Positions 33,626 through 41,235 of a stretch of 64,000 nt of DNA are shown here, piece after piece. Under the pieces are notes generated by a model, which was not told the origin of the DNA, did no database searches, and saw only the letters and a program-made list of their open reading frames with translations. Origin of the DNA: Candidatus Eiseniibacteriota bacterium (lineage in GTDB: Bacteria > Eisenbacteria > RBG-16-71-46 > JABDJR01). The translations under genes were made by a program, and so were the position numbers. How positions within the stretch are numbered: the stretch's first letter is position 1; the number at the start of each line of letters is the position of its first letter. Location of the stretch: assembly GCA_963762255.1 (NCBI GenBank), contig CAVXKA010000003.1, positions 912,203 to 976,202 on the forward strand, read 5' to 3'.

Positions 33626-35071
33626 TTGAGTCATGCGCGCCCGATCCGCGAACCGGCGGTGGCGGGTACGTTCTACCCGAGCGATGCCGGGCAACTGACC
33701 GCACTGGTGGACGGCCTTCTGCGGGATGCCACGTGCGGACTCGAGCCCGACCGCGATCTCAAGGCCCTCGCCTGCCCTCACGCGGGGTACGCGTACTCGG
33801 GGCAGGTGGCCGCGGAAGCGTTTGCGTGCCTGCGCGGGCGGTCCTTCACGACCGCGGTGTTGGTCGGCCCGGATCACTACATCGGCTTCGAGGGCATCGC
33901 GGTCTATCCCGCCGGCGCGTTTCGCACGCCGCTCGGCGATGCGACGGTGGATGAGGAGCTGGCCGATCTCTTCCTGGAGGCGGGCGAAGGCGTGACGGCG
34001 GCCCCCGAGGCCCATCGACGCGAGCACTCTCTCGAGGTGCTGATCCCCTTCCTGCAGCGCGTGCTCCCCGAAGTGCGCATCGTCCCGGTGTTGATGGGCT
34101 TTCGTTCGCGCAGCAACGTCGAGGTGCTGGCGAATCTTCTCTCGCGCGCGCTCGACAACCCCAAGGTTCTGCTCATCGCCTCGACGGATCTCTCGCACTA
34201 CCATCCGCGCGACGTGGCCAAGAAGCTCGACTCGCGGGTCACCGAGCACGTGCGCGCCTTCGCGCCGACTTCGCTCTGGGAAGATCTGCACGAGGGGCGG
34301 GCGGAGGCCTGCGGAGGCGATTCGCTGGTTGCGGTGATGCTGGGAGCGGGGATCGCAGGCGCCGAGGCCTCGCGGGTGCTCTCCTACAGGGACAGCGGAG
34401 ACGCGAGCGGTGAAACGAAGAGCGTGGTGGGCTACCTTTCCGCCGCCTTCTACCGCGGCATGCCGCCGCAGAAGATGGAGTTCATGGCCTACGAGCGGGA
34501 GTTGATGCCCTCCGAGGCCGACTCGCTGCTGCGTCTGGCCTACGAGTCCGCGCGCACCTCGGCGCTCTCACCCTACCCGGTGCTGGAGTTGCGGCACATC
34601 ACCGACACGCTTCGCGCGCCCGGGCGGGCGTTCGTGACCCTGCGGCACGGGCATGATCTGCGCGGCTGCATCGGCACGGTGCGCGCCGATCGACCTCTAT
34701 GGGAAACGGTCGCGCGGGCGGCGCGCGCTGCCGCGAACGAGGATCCGCGCTTCGATCCGGTCGAAGCCGACGAGATGGACGATCTCACCATCGAGGTGAG
34801 CGTGCTCGGCGCGCCCCGCGAGGTGGAGGATCCCGACGAAGTGGTGGCCGGCCGCCACGGCGTCATCATCAGCGAAGGTCGCCACTTCGGGCTGCTCCTG
34901 CCGCAGCTCGCCGACGAATACGGATGGGACCGCGAGACGCTCCTGAGTCAGGCCTGTGTCAAGGCCGGGCTCGCGCCCGACGCCTGGAAGACGGGTGCGC
35001 GCGTCAGCGTGTTCGAGGCTCAGGTCTTTCAAGCGGGGCCCGGGAAGCCGGCCATGAACGGGGGCACATGA
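33626..35071 (+). CDS. AmmeMemoRadiSam system protein B (Memo)-protein A (AMMECR1) fusion
   Basis: AVAGTFYP, PHAGYAYSG, EHSLEV, STDLSHY; then FVTL...LRGCIG, EDPRF, GLLLPQ, KAGL. Confidence 0.9.
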   Translation: MSHARPIREPAVAGTFYPSDAGQLTALVDGLLRDATCGLEPDRDLKALACPHAGYAYSGQVAAEAFACLRGRSFTTAVLVGPDHYIGFEGIAVYPAGAFRTPLGDATVDEELADLFLEAGEGVTAAPEAHRREHSLEVLIPFLQRVLPEVRIVPVLMGFRSRSNVEVLANLLSRALDNPKVLLIASTDLSHYHPRDVAKKLDSRVTEHVRAFAPTSLWEDLHEGRAEACGGDSLVAVMLGAGIAGAEASRVLSYRDSGDASGETKSVVGYLSAAFYRGMPPQKMEFMAYERELMPSEADSLLRLAYESARTSALSPYPVLELRHITDTLRAPGRAFVTLRHGHDLRGCIGTVRADRPLWETVARAARAAANEDPRFDPVEADEMDDLTIEVSVLGAPREVEDPDEVVAGRHGVIISEGRHFGLLLPQLADEYGWDRETLLSQACVKAGLAPDAWKTGARVSVFEAQVFQAGPGKPAMNGGT

Positions 35072-35610
35072 ACCTGCTCGACATTGCGCTCATCGCCATC
35101 GTTTTGTTCTCGATCGGGGCCGGGGTGTGGAAGGGGCTCGTGCGCGAGATCCTGAACATCGTGGGCGTCTTGGCCGCGATCCTTCTCTCGCTCATGCTGG
35201 CCTCGTCTCTGGCCCCTCGTATGAGTTCGATCCTTCCCTACGGCACGAGCGGCTACGCGGAGTCGTTGATCGTGATCTTCGTGGTGACGCTGATCGCGGC
35301 GACCCTGATCGCGCACCTGCTCACCAAAGTGATCGAGGCGGTGAAGCTGGGCGGCGTGAATCGGGCGCTGGGGGGCGTCTTCGGGCTGGTTCGTGGCGTA
35401 CTGATCGGGCTCTTCCTCGTGCTCGGCCTCGCGCTGTTCTTACCCTCTGGATCTTCGGTGCTGGCCGAGTCGAAGCTCACCCCGTTCCTGGGGCTGGGGG
35501 CTCGGGCGTTGGCCCCTCTTCTGCCCGATCAATCGGAAGACCTGCTCCTTCGGCGTCTGGATGCGCTCCCGCGTCCGGGCCAACCGGCGCCGCCGTCCGA
35601 CTCCGTATAG
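35068..35610 (+). CDS. CvpA family membrane protein
   Basis: MNLLDI...GVWKGLVRE, NRALGGVFGLVRG, ESKL. Confidence 0.85.
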   Translation: MNLLDIALIAIVLFSIGAGVWKGLVREILNIVGVLAAILLSLMLASSLAPRMSSILPYGTSGYAESLIVIFVVTLIAATLIAHLLTKVIEAVKLGGVNRALGGVFGLVRGVLIGLFLVLGLALFLPSGSSVLAESKLTPFLGLGARALAPLLPDQSEDLLLRRLDALPRPGQPAPPSDSV

Positions 35611-36556
35611 GCGAGCGGCGTCCGGCGAACACCGCGGGGCGTCCCATGCGCCGCAGCGTTGCATCCACCCGCTCCGGTCTCCCCCAATCGCTCCACTCCA
35701 CGTCGCGGAGCGGCAACACGAGAAGGCGGTCGAGCACGCGCGCGAGAACGTCCTGGGAGAAGTCGCGACGAGGCGCGGTCTCGTAGAGCGCCGTGACCGC
35801 GCGCGCGAGGCGCGGGGCGAGTTCGTGGCCGGGGGTGAGCAGGCGGTGAAATGCTTCGAAACGCGCCATCTCACTGCCCAAGGTCGTGTGCCCGACATCC
35901 CACAGCGTGCGGGCCTTGCCGACTACGATGAAGGTGCTCCAGAGGCAGCCCTGCCGGAAGAGGCGGCTCGCGACCACGAGCGGAGGCTTCTCGTGGAAGG
36001 CCTTCACGCGCGAGGGAAGCCCGGCGCGCCAGGTACGTTCCCAGGCCGCGGGTTGACCCTCGGGTTCGATCCAGCCGAAATCCGTCTCGGGCCCGCGCGC
36101 GTCGACGCCGAGCAGGATGACGCGGTCCGGATAGTGGCGGATCAGGTCGGTCGCGCGAGTGACCGCGGCCACGAACGCGCCTTCCGGACGGATGAAGTGA
36201 TCGGAGGGGAGAAGGAGCACGTCGGCGTCGGGATCCAGGGTCAGGATGGCGGCCAGGGAGAAGTAGACCGCGAAGGCCGTGCCGCGGTCGTAGGGTTGCT
36301 CCAGAATCCGGCCGCGCAACGCGCCCGGGTCCGAGATGAACGCGCGATGGCCCGGGCTGATCACGATGATGACGCGATCGCCACCGACGACGCTCGCCGC
36401 ACGCGCCGTGGTGTGATCGAGCAGCGAGCGCGTGCCGGTGAACGTGCAGTATTGCTTGGGTCGATCCTCGCCGAGCCAGTCGCGGATCGCCGCGCGCATG
36501 CGCGCGCCTTGCCCGCCGGCCAGGACCACCGCCCACGGGGCCGAACGCGTGGGCAT
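35477..36556 (-). CDS. Mannose-1-phosphate guanylyltransferase-like sugar nucleotidyltransferase
   Basis: VLAGGQG.R, PKQYC, EQPYDRGT, LPSDH, FHEKP, WSDWGRP. ATG 36556 follows GGAGG; the tail overlaps cvpA. Confidence 0.82.
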   Translation of the reverse strand: MPTRSAPWAVVLAGGQGARMRAAIRDWLGEDRPKQYCTFTGTRSLLDHTTARAASVVGGDRVIIVISPGHRAFISDPGALRGRILEQPYDRGTAFAVYFSLAAILTLDPDADVLLLPSDHFIRPEGAFVAAVTRATDLIRHYPDRVILLGVDARGPETDFGWIEPEGQPAAWERTWRAGLPSRVKAFHEKPPLVVASRLFRQGCLWSTFIVVGKARTLWDVGHTTLGSEMARFEAFHRLLTPGHELAPRLARAVTALYETAPRRDFSQDVLARVLDRLLVLPLRDVEWSDWGRPERVDATLRRMGRPAVFAGRRSPIRSRTAAPVGPDAGAHPDAEGAGLPIDRAEEGPTPEPPAPGTG

Positions 36557-36672
36557 CCGGTAGCCTCCTTCCCCAAGTCCGGGAACGACTCTACACCTTT
36601 GCGCGGCGCACGGGGGAGGGCGATGAGGTGACGATTGCATGGCGGCGGGGCATAGCGGGGCGCGGCGGCGCA

Positions 36673-36704
36673 CGGTGTCGAGGTGTCGCGGTGTCTCGGT
36701 GTCA
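36673..36704. repeat. Four tandem 8-bp units with GGTGTC core
   Basis: cggtgtcg aggtgtcg cggtgtct cggtgtca. Confidence 0.7.
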
Positions 36705-36742
36705 CGCCCACCCGGCTCGCCCACGCCCGCGGCTTCGCGTGC

Positions 36743-36815
36743 GCCCGTCGTCCTCGCCGACGGGTCCCCCGCTTCGCGGCCCGTCGGACTGCGGTCGACG
36801 GGCGTCACGCTACGC
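36743..36815 (-). repeat. REP-like structured repeat, left copy
   Basis: 65/73 identical to the reverse complement of 38177-38249; GTAG on minus strand at 36810-36813; nested stems. Confidence 0.88.
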
Positions 36816-37277
36816 CGCGGAGGTGCCACCCGGGTGAGCATCGATCCCGGAACCCCGCCGCAGCGGCCACGCATCAACCGCGTTGCTGCGCTCGTGGATC
36901 ATCCGGTGACAGGCAGCGCACAGGGTGATGAGGTTGTCGGGATCGTTCGTGCCACCGTGTTCGCGCGGCACGATGTGGTGCACGTCCAGGAAATGCGCGC
37001 CCCCGCACCCGGCGGTGCGACACCGATGACCGTCACGTGCGAGCACCTCTCGCCGCACCGACGGAGGGATGGTCGCGCGGTTAGTTTGACCCTTTCGGTG
37101 TACGCGCGCATCGCAGAGCGCGGTCTCCAACGTCCTGGGCGCGATGGGCATCGCCCCCCGCCCCGTCGCGATCTCAGCTCGACCGCAGGTCTCACATTGG
37201 CGAATGACGATCTGGTAGCGGGGCGCGGATGACACGGGAGTCGCATTCGCCGCCGGTATGTTGCCCCGGGTGATCAC
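36810..37277 (-). CDS. HNH endonuclease (C-terminal half of split DUF222-like/HNH gene)
   Basis: IPPSVRREVLARDGHRCRTAGC...DVHHIVP..GGTNDPDNLITLCAACHRMIH. Confidence 0.88.
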   Translation of the reverse strand: MITRGNIPAANATPVSSAPRYQIVIRQCETCGRAEIATGRGAMPIAPRTLETALCDARVHRKGQTNRATIPPSVRREVLARDGHRCRTAGCGGAHFLDVHHIVPREHGGTNDPDNLITLCAACHRMIHERSNAVDAWPLRRGSGIDAHPGGTSAA

Positions 37278-38041
37278 GTCCGGGTTCCGCCCGCTCCGCG
37301 CGCGGGCGGTGCACTGCCGAAGTTGCCCCGGGTGAGCATTTCCCGCGCGGCAAGGAACAACTCTTCGCGAGATCCACGCGCACCGGTCTTGCGCGCTTGC
37401 TCCAGGATCGCTTCATACCGCGCGTACTGCTCCGGCGAAAGTTGGAACGATACCGTGACCGGGACTTCCGTCACCGGGCTCACGACTGCGCCGTCCACCG
37501 CATCATAGGTTCCGGCCGCCTGCCCATTCGCCGCCAGCAGTTCCCCTTGCCCTGGTGCCCGCCGCCGGGAACGCGCCGCCCCCTGCGTCGCCGCCACCCG
37601 CTGCTCCAGCTCGCGCCGTCCGGTGGTCCGAGCCTGCTCGACCCAGAACGACTCCGTCTCCGGCGTGGCCACCTTCACGACCTCCCGGGCCTTCGTCCAC
37701 GGCACCGTTCCGGTAGCGACCGACTCCTTCAACGCCGGCAGTGCTTCGAAGGACCGACACAGTCGCAGGAAGTACGCGGTCCTCGCCCGAGAGAACCCCA
37801 GTCTCTCTCGCGCATAGTGGTGGATGCTCGAGCACCCGAACTCCAAGTAGAGCTTGCGGGCGAGGATCTCTCCGAACCAGATCACCGCGTTCTTGCGCGA
37901 AGCGTCCAGGTCGCCTAACGCGGCGACCAAGCGCACTTCGACCTCGACGGCGGGGAGCGCAGCCGTGCTCACCCGGGTGAGCACGGCCCCCTCAAGCAAC
38001 ACGGCGGTGTCAGTGTGAAGTGCAGTGGTTTCAGCGGACAT
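37274..38041 (-). CDS. DUF222-like helical protein (N-terminal half of split DUF222-like/HNH gene)
   Basis: LYLEFGCSSIHHYARERLGFS, LPALKESVATGTVPWTKAREV; GGAGG RBS; GTGA overlap with the HNH ORF. Confidence 0.7.
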   Translation of the reverse strand: MSAETTALHTDTAVLLEGAVLTRVSTAALPAVEVEVRLVAALGDLDASRKNAVIWFGEILARKLYLEFGCSSIHHYARERLGFSRARTAYFLRLCRSFEALPALKESVATGTVPWTKAREVVKVATPETESFWVEQARTTGRRELEQRVAATQGAARSRRRAPGQGELLAANGQAAGTYDAVDGAVVSPVTEVPVTVSFQLSPEQYARYEAILEQARKTGARGSREELFLAAREMLTRGNFGSAPPARGAGGTRT

Positions 38042-38094
38042 GACGGTCCCTCCGTGGACGGGTGGAAGGACGGGGGAAGTGGGCGGGCACGAAG

Positions 38095-38123
38095 AATCTA
38101 TCGCGACTATACGGATATGTCAA
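38095..38123 (-). promoter_or_regulatory. Sigma70 promoter for the DUF222-like/HNH gene
   Basis: Minus strand TTGACA (38123-38118), 17 nt, TAGATT (38100-38095) in an AT-rich patch. Confidence 0.75.
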
Positions 38124-38176
38124 CAATAAAATGACGTATTCGTTGAAAAACTTGTAGACGGATGCGCATGCGCTGC

Positions 38177-38256
38177 GCGTAGCGGGTTGCCCGTCGGCCG
38201 CAGTCCGAATGGCCGCGAAGCGGGGGCCCCTTCGGCGAGGACGACGGGCAACCCGC
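38177..38256 (+). repeat. REP-like structured repeat, right copy
   Basis: GTAG 38179-38182; perfect 15-bp stem 38182-38196/38242-38256; internal CCGCGAAGCGG hairpin. Confidence 0.88.
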
Positions 38257-38279
38257 GCAGCAACGCACATGCGAGCGCG

Positions 38280-39161
38280 TCACGCCAGCGGCCACACTCC
38301 TCGGAACACTTCCCGCGCGGGGCCGCGCATCACCAAACCGCCCGGTTCCTCGCGGCGCATCCACACCTCGCCGCCCGGCATGCGCACAATCACCTCGCCC
38401 TGTACCTCGCCGAGCCGCAGCGCCACCGCATAGGCAGCGACAGCGCCGCTGCCGCACGCGAGCGTCAGCCCCGCCCCGCGCTCCCACGTGCGCATGACCA
38501 GCGCGTCCTTGCCGGCCGCCGCGACGACATGCACGTTGATGCCGCGCAAGAACCGGGGGTCCTTCTCCAACCGCTGCCCGAACTCCCCGAGCGTGGCGTT
38601 CCGCACTACGTCCCCGCGCGCGGCCCACAGCACCAGGTGCGGGTTCCCCACGCTCACCGCGAAGCCGGGGAGCTCGATGCTTCCCGCCGGGAAACGATCG
38701 CCCCAGATTTCCGGGCCCGATCCCTCGGCGGGCAGAGCCTCGCGCCGGAAATCGGGCTCACCCGCCCACACTTCCACCTCGTCCACCCCACCGAGTGCCC
38801 CTCGATGCGGGCGGACCATCCGCTCCCCCACCGCCGTCTCCACCATGAACGTCTCGCCAAGCCCGCGCACCGATTCCGCGGCGTACTTGGCCGCGCAGCG
38901 CAACCCGTTCAAGCAGAGGAGCCCTTCCGAGCCGTCGGCGTTCCACATCCGCATGCGCACCGGAGATCCGTCGCCGGCCTCGAGCAGGATGAGCCCGTCG
39001 CTCCCCACGCCGTAGTGGCGGTCGGAGATCGCGCGGGAAAGATCGTCGAAGGCGCCCAGCGTGCCGGCGTCCACCGCGTCCGGGGTGAGCCCGGCGTCGA
39101 CGAAGACATAGTCGTTGCCGCACCCTTCCATCTTCACGAACGGGATTCGTTTCATGTGCAT
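38280..39161 (-). CDS. dapF: Diaminopimelate epimerase
   Basis: FVKMEGCGNDY, NADGSE..CLNG, VGNPH, WERGAGLTLACGSG. Confidence 0.93.
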   Translation of the reverse strand: MHMKRIPFVKMEGCGNDYVFVDAGLTPDAVDAGTLGAFDDLSRAISDRHYGVGSDGLILLEAGDGSPVRMRMWNADGSEGLLCLNGLRCAAKYAAESVRGLGETFMVETAVGERMVRPHRGALGGVDEVEVWAGEPDFRREALPAEGSGPEIWGDRFPAGSIELPGFAVSVGNPHLVLWAARGDVVRNATLGEFGQRLEKDPRFLRGINVHVVAAAGKDALVMRTWERGAGLTLACGSGAVAAYAVALRLGEVQGEVIVRMPGGEVWMRREEPGGLVMRGPAREVFRGVWPLA

Positions 39162-39186
39162 GCTCGCGCTCCGTACTCCACTGGGT

Positions 39187-40389
39187 TCATGTCGTCGTCT
39201 CGCTTGCGGTCGGGCGCGGCCCGGCGAGGAGCACCGCCGCCCCCAGTATCGCCGAGATCAGCGACCCGGCAAGGATACCCATCTTGGCCGGCTCGAGCAG
39301 CCCGCCCTCGCCGAACGCCAGGTTGGCGATGAAGAGCGACATCGTGAAGCCGATGCCCCCCAGCACCGCCGCTCCGTGCACGCGCCGCCAGCCGACCCCC
39401 TCGGGGAGGCTCGCCCAACCCAGCTTCACCGCGAGCCAGGAGAACCCGAGGATGCCGATCTGCTTGCCGAGCACGAGGCCGAGAATCACCCCAAGCGGCA
39501 CCGGCTGCAGGATGAGCCGTCCGATGGCGCTCGCGTCGATCTCCACCCCCGCGTTGGCGAGCGCGAACACCGGCATGATGCAATAGGAAACCCACGGCCC
39601 CAGTCCGTGCTCGAGATCCTGCAGGAGCGAAGTGCCTCGGTGGGGAACCGCCATCGCGGTGAGGACCCCGGCTACGGTGGCGTGAACGCCGCTGCGCAGG
39701 AAGAAGATCCACACCGCAAACCCGCCCAGCACGTATACCCATCGGCGGGTCACACCGAGGCGGGCGAGGCCGAAGAGCGCGGCCAGCACCGCGAACCCGA
39801 GCAGAAGCGAACCCGCGGCAAGCTCGGCGGTGTAGAAGATCGCGATCACCACGACCGCTCCCAAGTCATCCACCACCGCGAGCGCGGTGAGGAAGACCTT
39901 GAGTCCCAGCGGCACGCGATCCCCGAGAAGCATCAGCACGCCGATCGCGAATGCGATGTCGGTGGCCATCGGCACGCCCCAGCCCGGTGCGCCATCGCCG
40001 CGGAAGTTGAGGGCGGCGTAGAACGCGGCGGGCACCAGCATTCCACCCAACGCCGCCATGGCGGGGAGCGCGGCCTTCTTGGCCGAGGCGAGTTCGCCCG
40101 AGAGCACCTCGCGTTTGATCTCGAGCCCGACGTAGAAGAAGAACAACGCCATGAGACCGTCGTTGATCCAGTGGTGAAGCGAGAGCTTGAAGCGGGCATC
40201 GCCCCACGAGAGGCCGACGGTCGTGTGCCAGAGGTCGAAGTAGGATGCGCGCCACCCGGAGTTGGCCCACATCAGCGCGGCCACGGTAGCGAGGATGAGC
40301 ACGATGCCGCCGGACGCTTCGGTCTCGAAGAACTCGACGATCGGGTGGCGCAGCCACTCCGGCAGCGCGGGGCGTTTCTTGTCGTTCAT
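39187..40389 (-). CDS. nhaA: Na+/H+ antiporter NhaA
   Basis: WINDGLM, GLEIKRE, PMATDIAF, VDDLG, GIGFTMSLFI. Confidence 0.95.
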   Translation of the reverse strand: MNDKKRPALPEWLRHPIVEFFETEASGGIVLILATVAALMWANSGWRASYFDLWHTTVGLSWGDARFKLSLHHWINDGLMALFFFYVGLEIKREVLSGELASAKKAALPAMAALGGMLVPAAFYAALNFRGDGAPGWGVPMATDIAFAIGVLMLLGDRVPLGLKVFLTALAVVDDLGAVVVIAIFYTAELAAGSLLLGFAVLAALFGLARLGVTRRWVYVLGGFAVWIFFLRSGVHATVAGVLTAMAVPHRGTSLLQDLEHGLGPWVSYCIMPVFALANAGVEIDASAIGRLILQPVPLGVILGLVLGKQIGILGFSWLAVKLGWASLPEGVGWRRVHGAAVLGGIGFTMSLFIANLAFGEGGLLEPAKMGILAGSLISAILGAAVLLAGPRPTASETTT

Positions 40390-40437
40390 CGCCGGGCTCC
40401 GGGTAAGAGTTTGTCGCTGCAATCGGCCGACGGACCG

Positions 40438-41235
40438 TCAGCGGTACTGGACGAGATGGACGTCGCCGGCGTGGAGGATCTCCTCCGCGCCGCTCTCGAG
40501 ACGCACGCGCAAGGCCCCGTCGGGCTCGAGCCCCACCGCGGTTCCCAGCACCGCCTCCCCCGCGGTCTCCACCCGCACCATGCGGCCCAGAATCGCCGAG
40601 CGCCGGCGCCAGTGCGGAATGAGCGGCCCCGTTCCCTCGTTGCGGAAGCGCTCGTACCACTGCGACACGCACTCGATCAGCGCGAGCAACACGCCGAGGC
40701 GATCGACGTGACGGTGGCAGCACTGGCGAAGCGAGATCGCGCGGTCGCGAAGTTCGACAGGGAAGTCGGCCTCGGTGTGGTCCACGTTGAGGCCGATCCC
40801 GGCCACGCACCACTCGAGCACGCCTCCCTGCACGCCCATCTCGATGAGGACCCCGCCGAGCTTGCGGCCCTCGACCACGAGATCGTTGGGCCATTTGATC
40901 CCCACAACGCCCTGGATGCGCGTGCGCTCGGCGGCTTCCGCCGCGCCGAGCCCGACCGCCATGAGAATCCCGCTCGCGCTGGACGCGGGCACGCCGGGGC
41001 GGAAGATGAAGGAGACGTAGAGGCCGAGGCCCGCCGGCGAATGCCAGGTGCGCCCCAGCCGCCCCCGGCCCGCACTCTGCGCGTCAGCGATGACGATCGT
41101 GCCTTCTTCCGCTCCCGCGATCGCCAATTCCTTCGCCTTATCGTTCGTGGAGGCGATGGAGGGATAGAAGAAGAAGTGCCGCACCGAGGTGGAGTTCCGG
41201 AAGGCGATCTGGAGGTTGGCGGCGGTGAGCTGCAT
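40438..41235 (-). CDS. birA: Biotin-protein ligase (no N-terminal HTH)
   Basis: STND, QSAGRGRLGRTW, KWPNDL, KLGGVL, GIGLNV. Confidence 0.92.
   Translation of the reverse strand: MQLTAANLQIAFRNSTSVRHFFFYPSIASTNDKAKELAIAGAEEGTIVIADAQSAGRGRLGRTWHSPAGLGLYVSFIFRPGVPASSASGILMAVGLGAAEAAERTRIQGVVGIKWPNDLVVEGRKLGGVLIEMGVQGGVLEWCVAGIGLNVDHTEADFPVELRDRAISLRQCCHRHVDRLGVLLALIECVSQWYERFRNEGTGPLIPHWRRRSAILGRMVRVETAGEAVLGTAVGLEPDGALRVRLESGAEEILHAGDVHLVQYR

Follow-up and report, generated by a model that had tools for sequence, protein, structure and literature searches.

We analyzed a window of 64,000 nucleotides (nt) from Candidatus Eiseniibacteriota bacterium (GCA_963762255.1, contig CAVXKA010000003.1, positions 912,203-976,202, forward strand), in which an HNH-family nuclease gene lies between two inverted copies of a hairpin-forming repeat. 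Our analyses favor the view, with a probability of roughly 0.55, that the window contains two separate repeat systems side by side and not a two-ended transposon. The 98-nt hairpin would belong to a genus-restricted family of 23 loci resembling repetitive extragenic palindromes (REPs), with its stem under selection for pairing. The 1.45-kb HNH cassette would be one copy of a seven-member selfish nuclease gene family, frameshifted and probably dead in the window, whose protein is predicted to combine a ParB/KorB/Noc-like helix-turn-helix (HTH) domain, a linker, a zinc ribbon and an HNH domain. In the youngest HNH subfamily, the duplicated unit would comprise an AT-rich promoter, the gene and one hairpin whose stem contains the stop codon. 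Such a unit may have landed next to a solo hairpin already present downstream of dapF, or have been copied there by recombination, giving rise to the apparent bracket.

The inverted-repeat arms (36743-36815 and 38177-38249) are 73 nt long and 89% complementary, with a spacing of 1361 nt. Both arm regions fold as long, bulged hairpins on either strand as single-stranded DNA (-43.5 to -47.3 kcal/mol, z of -4.5 to -6.3), and none of 200 shuffles equaled them, which bears out the inverted arms and long hairpins of the original prediction. The other details claimed for the arms can be read in the sequence as well, namely, the GCGAAGC mini-hairpin (CCGCGAAGCGG), the compensatory change from inner ccgaC/Gtcgg to ccgaA/Ttcgg between the two arms, and the TAG stop codon of the HNH gene (36810-36812, minus strand) inside the left GTAG. 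GTAG adjoins the cassette on both sides.

The repeat unit of approximately 98 nt exceeds these arms. BLAST searches with either arm detected 23 loci in this genome, which is a 4.14-Mb assembly of three contigs with 67% G+C and an estimated completeness of 93.6%; 21 copies are full-length, the other two being partial or degenerate. With a covariance model based on the hairpin alignment, 22 sense-strand matches were obtained. The left copy in the window (36725-36821, plus strand, 98.8 bits) carries the HNH stop in its CTAC end and has a junction and subtype in common with the hairpins of three other HNH paralogues. This subtype, the C-variant, has an inner C-G pair instead of A-T. The right copy (38171-38268, minus strand, 95.7 bits) is of the common solo subtype, or A-variant, and is in sense orientation relative to dapF.

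The alignment of 24 copies (21 from this genome, two from the same-genus genome G001 and one from a metagenome contig) supports a consensus structure of 34 pairs in which 97.3% of cells are paired. Double-sided changes affect 10 of the 34 pairs (46 cells), and stem blocks can be swapped as a whole, for example, CGCCCG...CGGGCG versus CGCGGG...CCCGCG. None of 500 column shuffles reached any of five pairing measures, and sliding the partners by one to three columns reduced pairing to 35-49%. The stem is thus maintained by selection on pairing. Almost all changes are full Watson-Crick swaps, and G-U pairs are rare, which fits a DNA-level structure that matters on both strands without proving it. 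The tetranucleotide CTAC (GTAG on the other strand) is found in 15 of the 21 full-length copies of this genome. The A of this tetranucleotide is paired to column 13, with which it covaries (UA 13, AU 2, CG 2, GC 2, GU 1, other 4), so the tetranucleotide is a stem position rather than an invariant single-stranded signal of the REP type. Pair 40/62, which defines the C-variant, is CG in five of the 24 rows, corresponding to the four hairpins that abut an HNH stop codon and to one of the 17 solo copies. That sole solo C-variant (C1:701976-702074) has no clear gene ends nearby and possibly lies inside a coding-like stretch; a search for an HNH remnant beside it found none.

Hairpin position and orientation were judged from crude gene calls based on long open reading frames (ORFs) with high third-position G+C. 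A coding ORF end was found within 120 nt of 10 of the 16 solo full-length hairpins; six of these are unambiguously in sense orientation (2-40 nt) and one in antisense (118 nt), and the remaining three are flanked by convergent genes. The right hairpin of the window, which begins 11 nt past the dapF stop, is one of the six sense copies. Overall, copies with an ORF end within 120 nt typically start 1-56 nt past the stop codon, usually in sense, and a copy in G001 starts 1 nt past a stop, also in sense. The hairpin is thus a generic REP-like interspersed extragenic repeat, multicopy and mostly intergenic, with a structure kept by compensatory change. A search for intrinsic terminators found no terminator-like site in 36500-38400, the hairpin copies being devoid of a T tail, and Rfam gave no match to 34000-41000 at E up to 1.

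The distribution of the hairpin is narrow. Searching for the repeat by BLASTN and covariance model, a check that had been put forward with the original prediction, did uncover a family, but one seen only in this genus: BLAST detected it in two of 31 genomes, this one and G001, and in none of the 29 outside the genus. The covariance model matched three loci in G001 and, outside the genus, gave one weak match (33.7 bits) in G007; none of the other 28 relatives had a match. A comparison of loci between this genome and G001 showed one conserved hairpin, one with an internal deletion and three sites where the hairpin is absent, so the family has been active after the two species diverged. The solo locus C1:866982 is among the sites empty in G001, and one empty site shows a possible imperfect duplication of 9-10 nt (GCCGTCTAGGCG / GGACGCTACGAC), ambiguous because of GC-rich ends. 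At the orthologue of the C1:866982 site, G001 has a different 54-nt spacer with a degenerate palindrome, GTGATCACCCAAGTGAATG (G001:C312, ca. 2049-2102).

Seven loci of the HNH family were identified in this genome by tblastn, with homology spanning approximately 1.4-1.55 kb. Five of them harbor intact ORFs of roughly 370-450 residues, and the window copy and that at C2:556 are broken. Compared with an intact paralogue of 436 residues, the window copy has two extra bases in a CG run near 37300 (37296-37306, minus strand), as determined from the alignment and ORF structures. The resulting +2 frameshift splits the gene into a 5' fragment of 255 codons (37274-38041, minus strand) and a 3' fragment of 155 codons (36810-37277, minus strand), and there are in-frame deletions in addition. 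By reference to the predicted fold of the intact paralogue, the former would encode a disordered N terminus, a ParB/KorB/Noc-like helical domain and middle helices, and the latter a zinc ribbon and an HNH domain; the latter is 96.8% identical to the intact paralogue and matches Pfam HNH (PF01844, E of 4.5e-12). Unless the two extra bases are an assembly error, the window copy is probably a pseudogene. The gene had been predicted as a single DUF222-like/HNH ORF. The HNH part holds, but there are two ORFs, and DUF222 (PF02720) was detected neither in the window products (E up to 0.1) nor in two intact paralogues (E up to 1); it was found in one of 17 relatives (E of 6.5e-6).

Five close paralogues have in common an AT-rich promoter region, an almost invariant 5' leader and the gene. 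In the window, a promoter-like TTGACA-17-TAGATT sequence in an AT-rich stretch (38095-38123, minus strand), kept across these paralogues, matches 10 of 12 positions; one such site was present versus 0.2 expected in shuffles, in agreement with the promoter predicted earlier. The leader (38042-38094, minus strand) ends with GGAGGG ahead of the ATG, and its summed contig depth was very high in two metagenome runs. Its conservation among the five paralogues exceeds that of the coding sequence, and a regulatory role is possible.

A hairpin is present on the stop-codon side of five of the seven HNH loci, versus 23 hairpin loci in 4.1 Mb; the two families are thus associated far beyond chance. At four loci (the window, C2:935, C2:556 and C3:153), the hairpin abuts the stop codon in the same register. 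The HNH gene at C2:316 has a hairpin of the common subtype approximately 320 nt downstream of its stop, behind other small repeats, and the two distant paralogues have none. The window copy is 90.0% identical to C2:935405-936955 over 1553 nt. That homology covers 36707-38178, thus taking in the left hairpin and ending at the start of the right one, and the two copies have 20-50 nt more in common past the hairpin. Moreover, hairpin identities to the window copy (99, 97, 91 and 86%) rank in the same order as gene identities (90, 77, 75 and 72%). The shared C-variant and junction, the matching order of identities and the shared DNA past the hairpin indicate that the 3' hairpin was, at least once, copied along with the HNH gene.

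In contrast, hairpins on both sides are found at one of the seven HNH loci only, that of the window. The right hairpin is of the common solo subtype and at a typical solo position, and the homology with the C2:935 paralogue stops at its edge (38178), where the end of a host gene stands instead. Bracketing, which had been taken as a property of the element, is therefore peculiar to this copy. The empty site that had been anticipated between the nucleotidyltransferase gene (NTP_transferase, 35480-36556, minus strand) and dapF (DAP_epimerase, 38283-39161, minus strand) exists in G001, whose genome is only 75% complete. The two genes are approximately 51 nt apart there, with no trace of hairpins or cassette. 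DNA from 36574 to 38275 has no BLASTN match in G001, and visual comparison shows similarity between the G001 spacer and the window as far as ca. 36626, which places the true insertion at ca. 36627-38272. Because G001 lacks the gene along with both hairpins, it does not reveal which arrived first. No target-site duplication is visible at the window junctions relative to G001, and approximately 100 nt of unrelated DNA separates the left hairpin from the ancestral spacer. A second HNH locus, C3:153, is also empty in G001; for C2:935, we found no orthologous region in that incomplete genome.

We also examined metagenome contigs from four runs, which are short and come from mixed relatives; at most 0.12 of sampled words were present in any run. 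Depth peaked over both hairpins and the HNH 5' leader, which shows a multicopy state there and no more. One contig connects 38136 to 38275, skipping the right hairpin, and another joins a hairpin of a different subtype to the HNH 3' end at 36858, as a single loose end. Scanning metagenomes with a hairpin core pattern yielded one locus (L119), the orthologue of the solo copy C1:106113, without an HNH gene, and scanning with the intact HNH protein gave 123 pattern matches, none of them confirmed.

Sequence comparisons point to a short perfect palindrome, and not the hairpin, as the element that follows the HNH family across lineages. A perfect 20-nt palindrome, ATG(A/C)TCACCCGGGTGA(G/T)CAT, is scattered through this genome, where less than one copy is expected by composition. 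TCACCCGGGTGA occurs exactly 70 times, versus none for the reversed control, and 60 of the 70 occurrences lie outside a crude coding mask that spans 60% of the genome. The ACCCGGGT palindrome is present at all seven HNH loci. Palindromic copies are found within HNH ORFs ± 250 nt in 11 of 79 cases (0.23 expected), and within 150 nt of four of the 17 solo hairpins (approximately 0.13 expected in all). At HNH loci, they occupy DNA coding for low-confidence, variable parts of the protein, i.e., the N terminus, the linker and the C-terminal tail. In the window, a perfect palindrome of 26 nt, GCCGTGCTCACCCGGGTGAGCACGGC, which belongs to this dispersed family, lies in DNA coding for the disordered N terminus (37962-37987), and a half-decayed copy, CACCCGGGTGAGCA, is found in DNA for the C-terminal tail beside the left hairpin (36827-36840). 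Some TCACCCGGGTGA copies overlap in tandem, and they are enriched at HNH genes and near hairpins; the palindrome is also overrepresented in the sister genomes G001 (10 copies), G005 (23) and G007 (31). Beside palindrome copies there is a second repeat family of approximately 95 nt, at C1:703165-703264 and in six other places, including C2:317328-317422. Two of its members match the hairpin covariance model weakly (45.8 and 35.4 bits), and one copy lies within the linker of the intact HNH ORF at C2:316.

The HNH family extends far beyond the genus. It is present in 14 of the 31 genomes, this one included, and is multicopy in the 13 other relatives, with many copies in several of them. No HNH match was found in G001, a weak negative given its completeness, yet G001 has hairpins at four places by BLAST and three by the covariance model. 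A protein collection yielded 313 relatives of the intact paralogue at E up to 0.001, many of them on contigs of 1.2-2.5 kb, and 526 stretches of reference genomes encode a relative. The best 80 of these 526 (L031-L110), on which our analyses of distant homologues are based, come from metagenome-assembled genomes titled Candidatus Krumholzibacteriia/-ota, Candidatus Eisenbacteria, 'Fibrobacteraceae' or 'bacterium'; as many as 11 loci occur in a single genome.

In these 80 loci, perfect palindromes of at least 14 nt concentrate at +700 to +900 nt of the ORF, in linker-coding DNA, with densities of 3.4 and 2.75 per kb versus 0-1.1 in other bins. Such a palindrome is found between +600 and +1000 in 53 of the 80, with CCCGGG (27), GCCGGC (15) or CACGTG (11) as cores, and in five loci the same 10-nt core recurs immediately upstream of the ORF. 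G004 contains 13 copies of the palindrome TTTCCCCGGGGAAA (none for the control), five at its two HNH genes and eight elsewhere. ACCCGGGT as a family-wide motif was rejected, being present in two of the 80 distant loci; what generalizes is a palindrome in a fixed location, its core being variable. We also compared recognition-helix residues with the palindrome cores, but the groups that differed corresponded to clades, so the comparison gave no evidence. The hairpin behaves differently. The 150 nt around and after the stop, analyzed for 78 of the 80 loci, had a mean folding energy of -28.4 kcal/mol versus -29.6 kcal/mol in 468 control windows, and five of the 78 loci were below the 5th percentile of the controls, approximately the number expected by chance. 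The hairpin was therefore rejected as a family-wide 3' feature of HNH genes, and the expectation that inverted hairpins recur at the flanks of homologues was not borne out. HNH paralogues of a sister genus end in arrays of ACCCGGGT motifs, without this hairpin. As judged from these genomes, the partnership between hairpin and HNH gene appears to be local to this genus.

The AlphaFold model of the intact paralogue (mean predicted local distance difference test score of 68; approximately 76-96, mostly above 90, for residues 45-178) has a helical domain toward the N terminus, then two middle helices, and a zinc ribbon followed by an HNH domain. Its C-terminal part resembles McrA (Z of 7.7), phage HNH enzymes and the HNH domains of IscB (Z of 7.1-7.3). 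Identity as IscB, an RNA-guided nuclease that combines RuvC and HNH, was rejected, because the NCBIfam model NF040563 matched no more than the HNH part, at 52.3 bits where the cut-off is 175. For the N-terminal domain, VIA-align matched the ParB-parS structure 6s6h_B (Z of 6.4, 104 residues aligned), Spo0J (1vz0, Z of 6.2) and KorB (8qa8, Z of 5.4; 1r71, Z of 5.3), and Foldseek matched Noc bound to its site (6y93_B; probability of 1.0, E of 0.07, TM score of 0.64 on the target). These moderate matches agree with one another and with weak Pfam HTH_ParB matches in three of 17 relatives (E up to 0.1, best E of 0.0046). ParB/Noc/KorB-type proteins bind palindromes of approximately 13-16 bp as dimers, and the cores of parS and of the Noc site resemble two of the three palindrome cores found here. 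The ParB-like fold, this dimeric mode of binding and the likeness of the cores suggest by analogy that the modeled HNH protein might bind its own embedded palindrome.

We looked for an enzyme that might have spread the hairpins. In REP systems, hairpins are mobilized by REP-associated tyrosine transposases (RAYTs) of the Y1/HUH type. No match to Y1_Tnp (PF01797) was obtained in this genome at E up to 0.01, although the same search detected it in six of 14 reference genomes. No IS110-type (DEDD) transposase was found either, nor a transposase-bearing insertion sequence (IS) that could have been the parent of the hairpins as miniature inverted-repeat transposable elements. Self-comparison of the genome revealed very few multicopy elements, making it IS poor. 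The case that would have spoken against the original prediction, a RAYT elsewhere in the genome with no enrichment of hairpins at HNH genes, thus did not occur, with five of the seven HNH loci linked to a hairpin. The feature is real and nonrandom, and it stands as evidence for the coupling of a selfish HNH gene with a REP-like hairpin where no RAYT was found in the genome.

Under the preferred reading of two neighboring repeat systems, the 3' hairpin might provide the cassette with a structured 3' end, or with shared homology through which it is copied. The real recognition sequence of the nuclease would be the CCCGGG-core palindrome carried by every copy rather than the hairpin, and the cassette might spread via nuclease-initiated repair or recombination at structured intergenic DNA. 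Several points weigh against this reading. Chance alone is unlikely to have brought an HNH unit within approximately 50 nt of one of some 17 solo hairpins; a targeting mechanism or some functional link is therefore likely, which the reading leaves unexplained. An attraction between the unit and the hairpin, by targeting or by recombination between hairpins, is plausible. No enzyme that spreads hairpins was found in the genome, which leaves the HNH protein as the only multicopy nuclease candidate. The ParB-like fold match is moderate (Z below 8), with HTH_ParB detected in a minority of the relatives scanned, the two-base frameshift could be an assembly error, and hairpin positions and orientations depend on crude ORF calls filtered on third-position G+C. 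Finally, the HNH-linked hairpins at C3:153204, C2:318153 and C2:936841 lie 4-56 nt past a host stop codon in the usual sense orientation, which fits equally well with resident hairpins that were joined later by the HNH gene.

This last observation is in line with a scenario that we regard as unlikely but worth considering, in which the hairpins belong to the host and the HNH cassette invades site-specifically at their distal (CTAC) edge, the 3' hairpin being its target and not its cargo. The 5' end of the window cassette is also beside the CTAC side of a solo hairpin, the loose metagenome contig has a hairpin of a different subtype at 36858, and the hairpin at C2:316 is of the common subtype and some 320 nt from the stop. 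However, the four hairpins that abut a stop codon have the same junction and a subtype rare among solos (1/17), the window copy and that at C2:556437 have no host gene end beside them, and the 20-50 nt common to the window and C2:935 past the hairpin argue that it was copied with the gene at least once. The possibility that the HNH protein is RAYT-like, recognizes the hairpin as single-stranded DNA or as a cruciform and moves solo copies in trans, with the HNH-hairpin unit as autonomous parent, appears improbable to us. The lack of Y1/HUH and IS110 enzymes in an IS-poor genome, the linkage at five HNH loci, the three loci at which hairpin presence differs from G001, and the predominance of full Watson-Crick swaps, suiting a DNA structure readable on both strands, are all in its favor. 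Yet the 13 other relatives with the HNH family belong with genomes in which the hairpin is absent by BLAST (29 outside the genus, with the single weak covariance-model match of 33.7 bits), and the 78 distant loci have no excess folding past the stop. G001 has hairpins without an HNH match (a weak point at 75% completeness), GTAG is a covarying stem position, and the companion of the family across lineages is the short perfect palindrome. Thus, the pairing of an HNH nuclease with REP hairpins proposed originally holds as linkage at five of seven loci, but is not supported as a hairpin-bounded, RAYT-like transposon. The least credible possibility is that the window holds the only complete two-ended element, with the hairpins as terminal inverted repeats, and that the other six copies lost the promoter-side end. 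The inverted match of 65 of 73 nt, with only a promoter and gene between the arms, and the absence of the whole block from G001 would fit. However, both ends occur in one copy of seven, the arms are of different subtypes with the right one resembling solos, and the closest paralogue (90%) breaks off exactly at the edge of the hairpin, where it adjoins a host stop codon. The junctions show no target-site duplication, and the ca. 100 nt of unrelated DNA separate the left hairpin from the ancestral spacer.

Comparison with known systems places the two repeat families of the preferred reading in context. REP/RAYT systems have interspersed extragenic hairpins, mostly after gene ends, in which a conserved, unpaired GTAG-type tetranucleotide stands ahead of a short imperfect palindrome, and, as a rule, a nuclease gene between inverted repeats. 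The hairpins described here are likewise interspersed, mostly past gene ends, with a conserved GTAG-like tetranucleotide and one nuclease copy flanked by inverted repeats. They differ in that this genome has no Y1/HUH gene and the associated gene is of the HNH type, two-sided in one of seven copies, and in that the unit is 98 nt long with a 34-pair stem, at 23 loci and not hundreds, with GTAG paired and covarying. Some insertion sequences target REPs, and group IIC introns insert after terminator stem-loops; here too, a mobile gene is directly beside a structured intergenic repeat, on a fixed side, but there is no transposase or reverse transcriptase and the hairpin was at least sometimes copied with the gene. 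Free-standing HNH homing endonuclease genes of phages are single-gene selfish nuclease cassettes that invite comparison because nuclease-initiated repair, with flanking DNA co-converted, is a possible route of spread. In contrast, the present family is chromosomal, multicopy and at nonhomologous intergenic sites, with its presumed recognition palindrome inside the gene.

The mycobacterial REP13E12/DUF222-HNH repeats are similar as multicopy single-gene units of approximately 1.4 kb with a helical N-terminal region and a C-terminal HNH domain. They differ by host phylum and by DUF222, undetected in the window products and the two paralogues scanned and positive in one of 17 relatives. A passage of PMC10589994, with a citation of Gordon et al. 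1999, names REP13E12 among categories of repeats, together with HNH and DUF222, and one of PMC3592412 lists DUF222 as an extra domain of some HNH enzymes. REP13E12 is not known to have a hairpin or palindrome partner, none was found in the literature searched, and no paper was found that describes a pairing of HNH with hairpins or of a ParB-like HTH with HNH and palindromes. As for ParB, Noc and KorB, the N-terminal domain of the modeled HNH protein superposes on the ParB-parS, Spo0J, KorB-operator and Noc-binding site (NBS) structures, but with moderate Z of 5.3-6.4, and here it is joined in one protein to a zinc ribbon and an HNH nuclease, with no ParB N-terminal CTPase domain seen. The CCCGGG, CACGTG and GCCGGC cores resemble those of NBS, parS and the KorB operator (OB), respectively. 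In Bacillus subtilis, a parS site lies within spo0J, a parallel to a putative binding site inside the gene of its own protein.

A family with a ParB-like HTH, an HNH domain and embedded and dispersed palindromes is the more general point and possibly new. A broader reading that takes these observations jointly, which we put forward as tentative, is that these HNH genes represent a widespread, undescribed class of selfish nucleases with a ParB/Noc/KorB-type HTH, embedded palindromes and hairpin coupling. Each gene would carry a cognate perfect palindrome of 14-26 bp in DNA coding for the linker or termini, often again in the promoter region, with a core that changes by lineage (CCCGGG, GCCGGC or CACGTG), and the element would seed the host genome with dozens of sites (70 here, 13 in G004). 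In this genus, the REP-like hairpin would be carried or targeted in addition, the HNH enzyme filling the niche of RAYTs. The spread of REP-like repeats, and that of single-gene HNH families such as REP13E12, is a long-standing question for which this locus offers a tractable case. It combines an IS-poor genome without a RAYT, a small family of structured hairpins that varies between sister species, and a nuclease family coupled to the hairpin. The embedded palindrome provides a concrete candidate recognition sequence for the nuclease and, if the link holds true, would account for a gene family that is multicopy across several poorly known phyla.

Two further features were noted. Between the left hairpin and the ancestral intergenic DNA, four tandem 8-mers of the form GGTGTCnn (36674-36705, plus strand) read GGTGTCGA, GGTGTCGC, GGTGTCTC and GGTGTCAC; they have no further copy in the genome, and the ca. 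100 nt around them have no counterpart in G001 or elsewhere in the genome. Two contigs share a duplication of approximately 23 kb (C1:45444-68144 and C2:1404987-1427725), one end of which is less than 1 kb from the distant HNH paralogue at C2:1403255-1404325.

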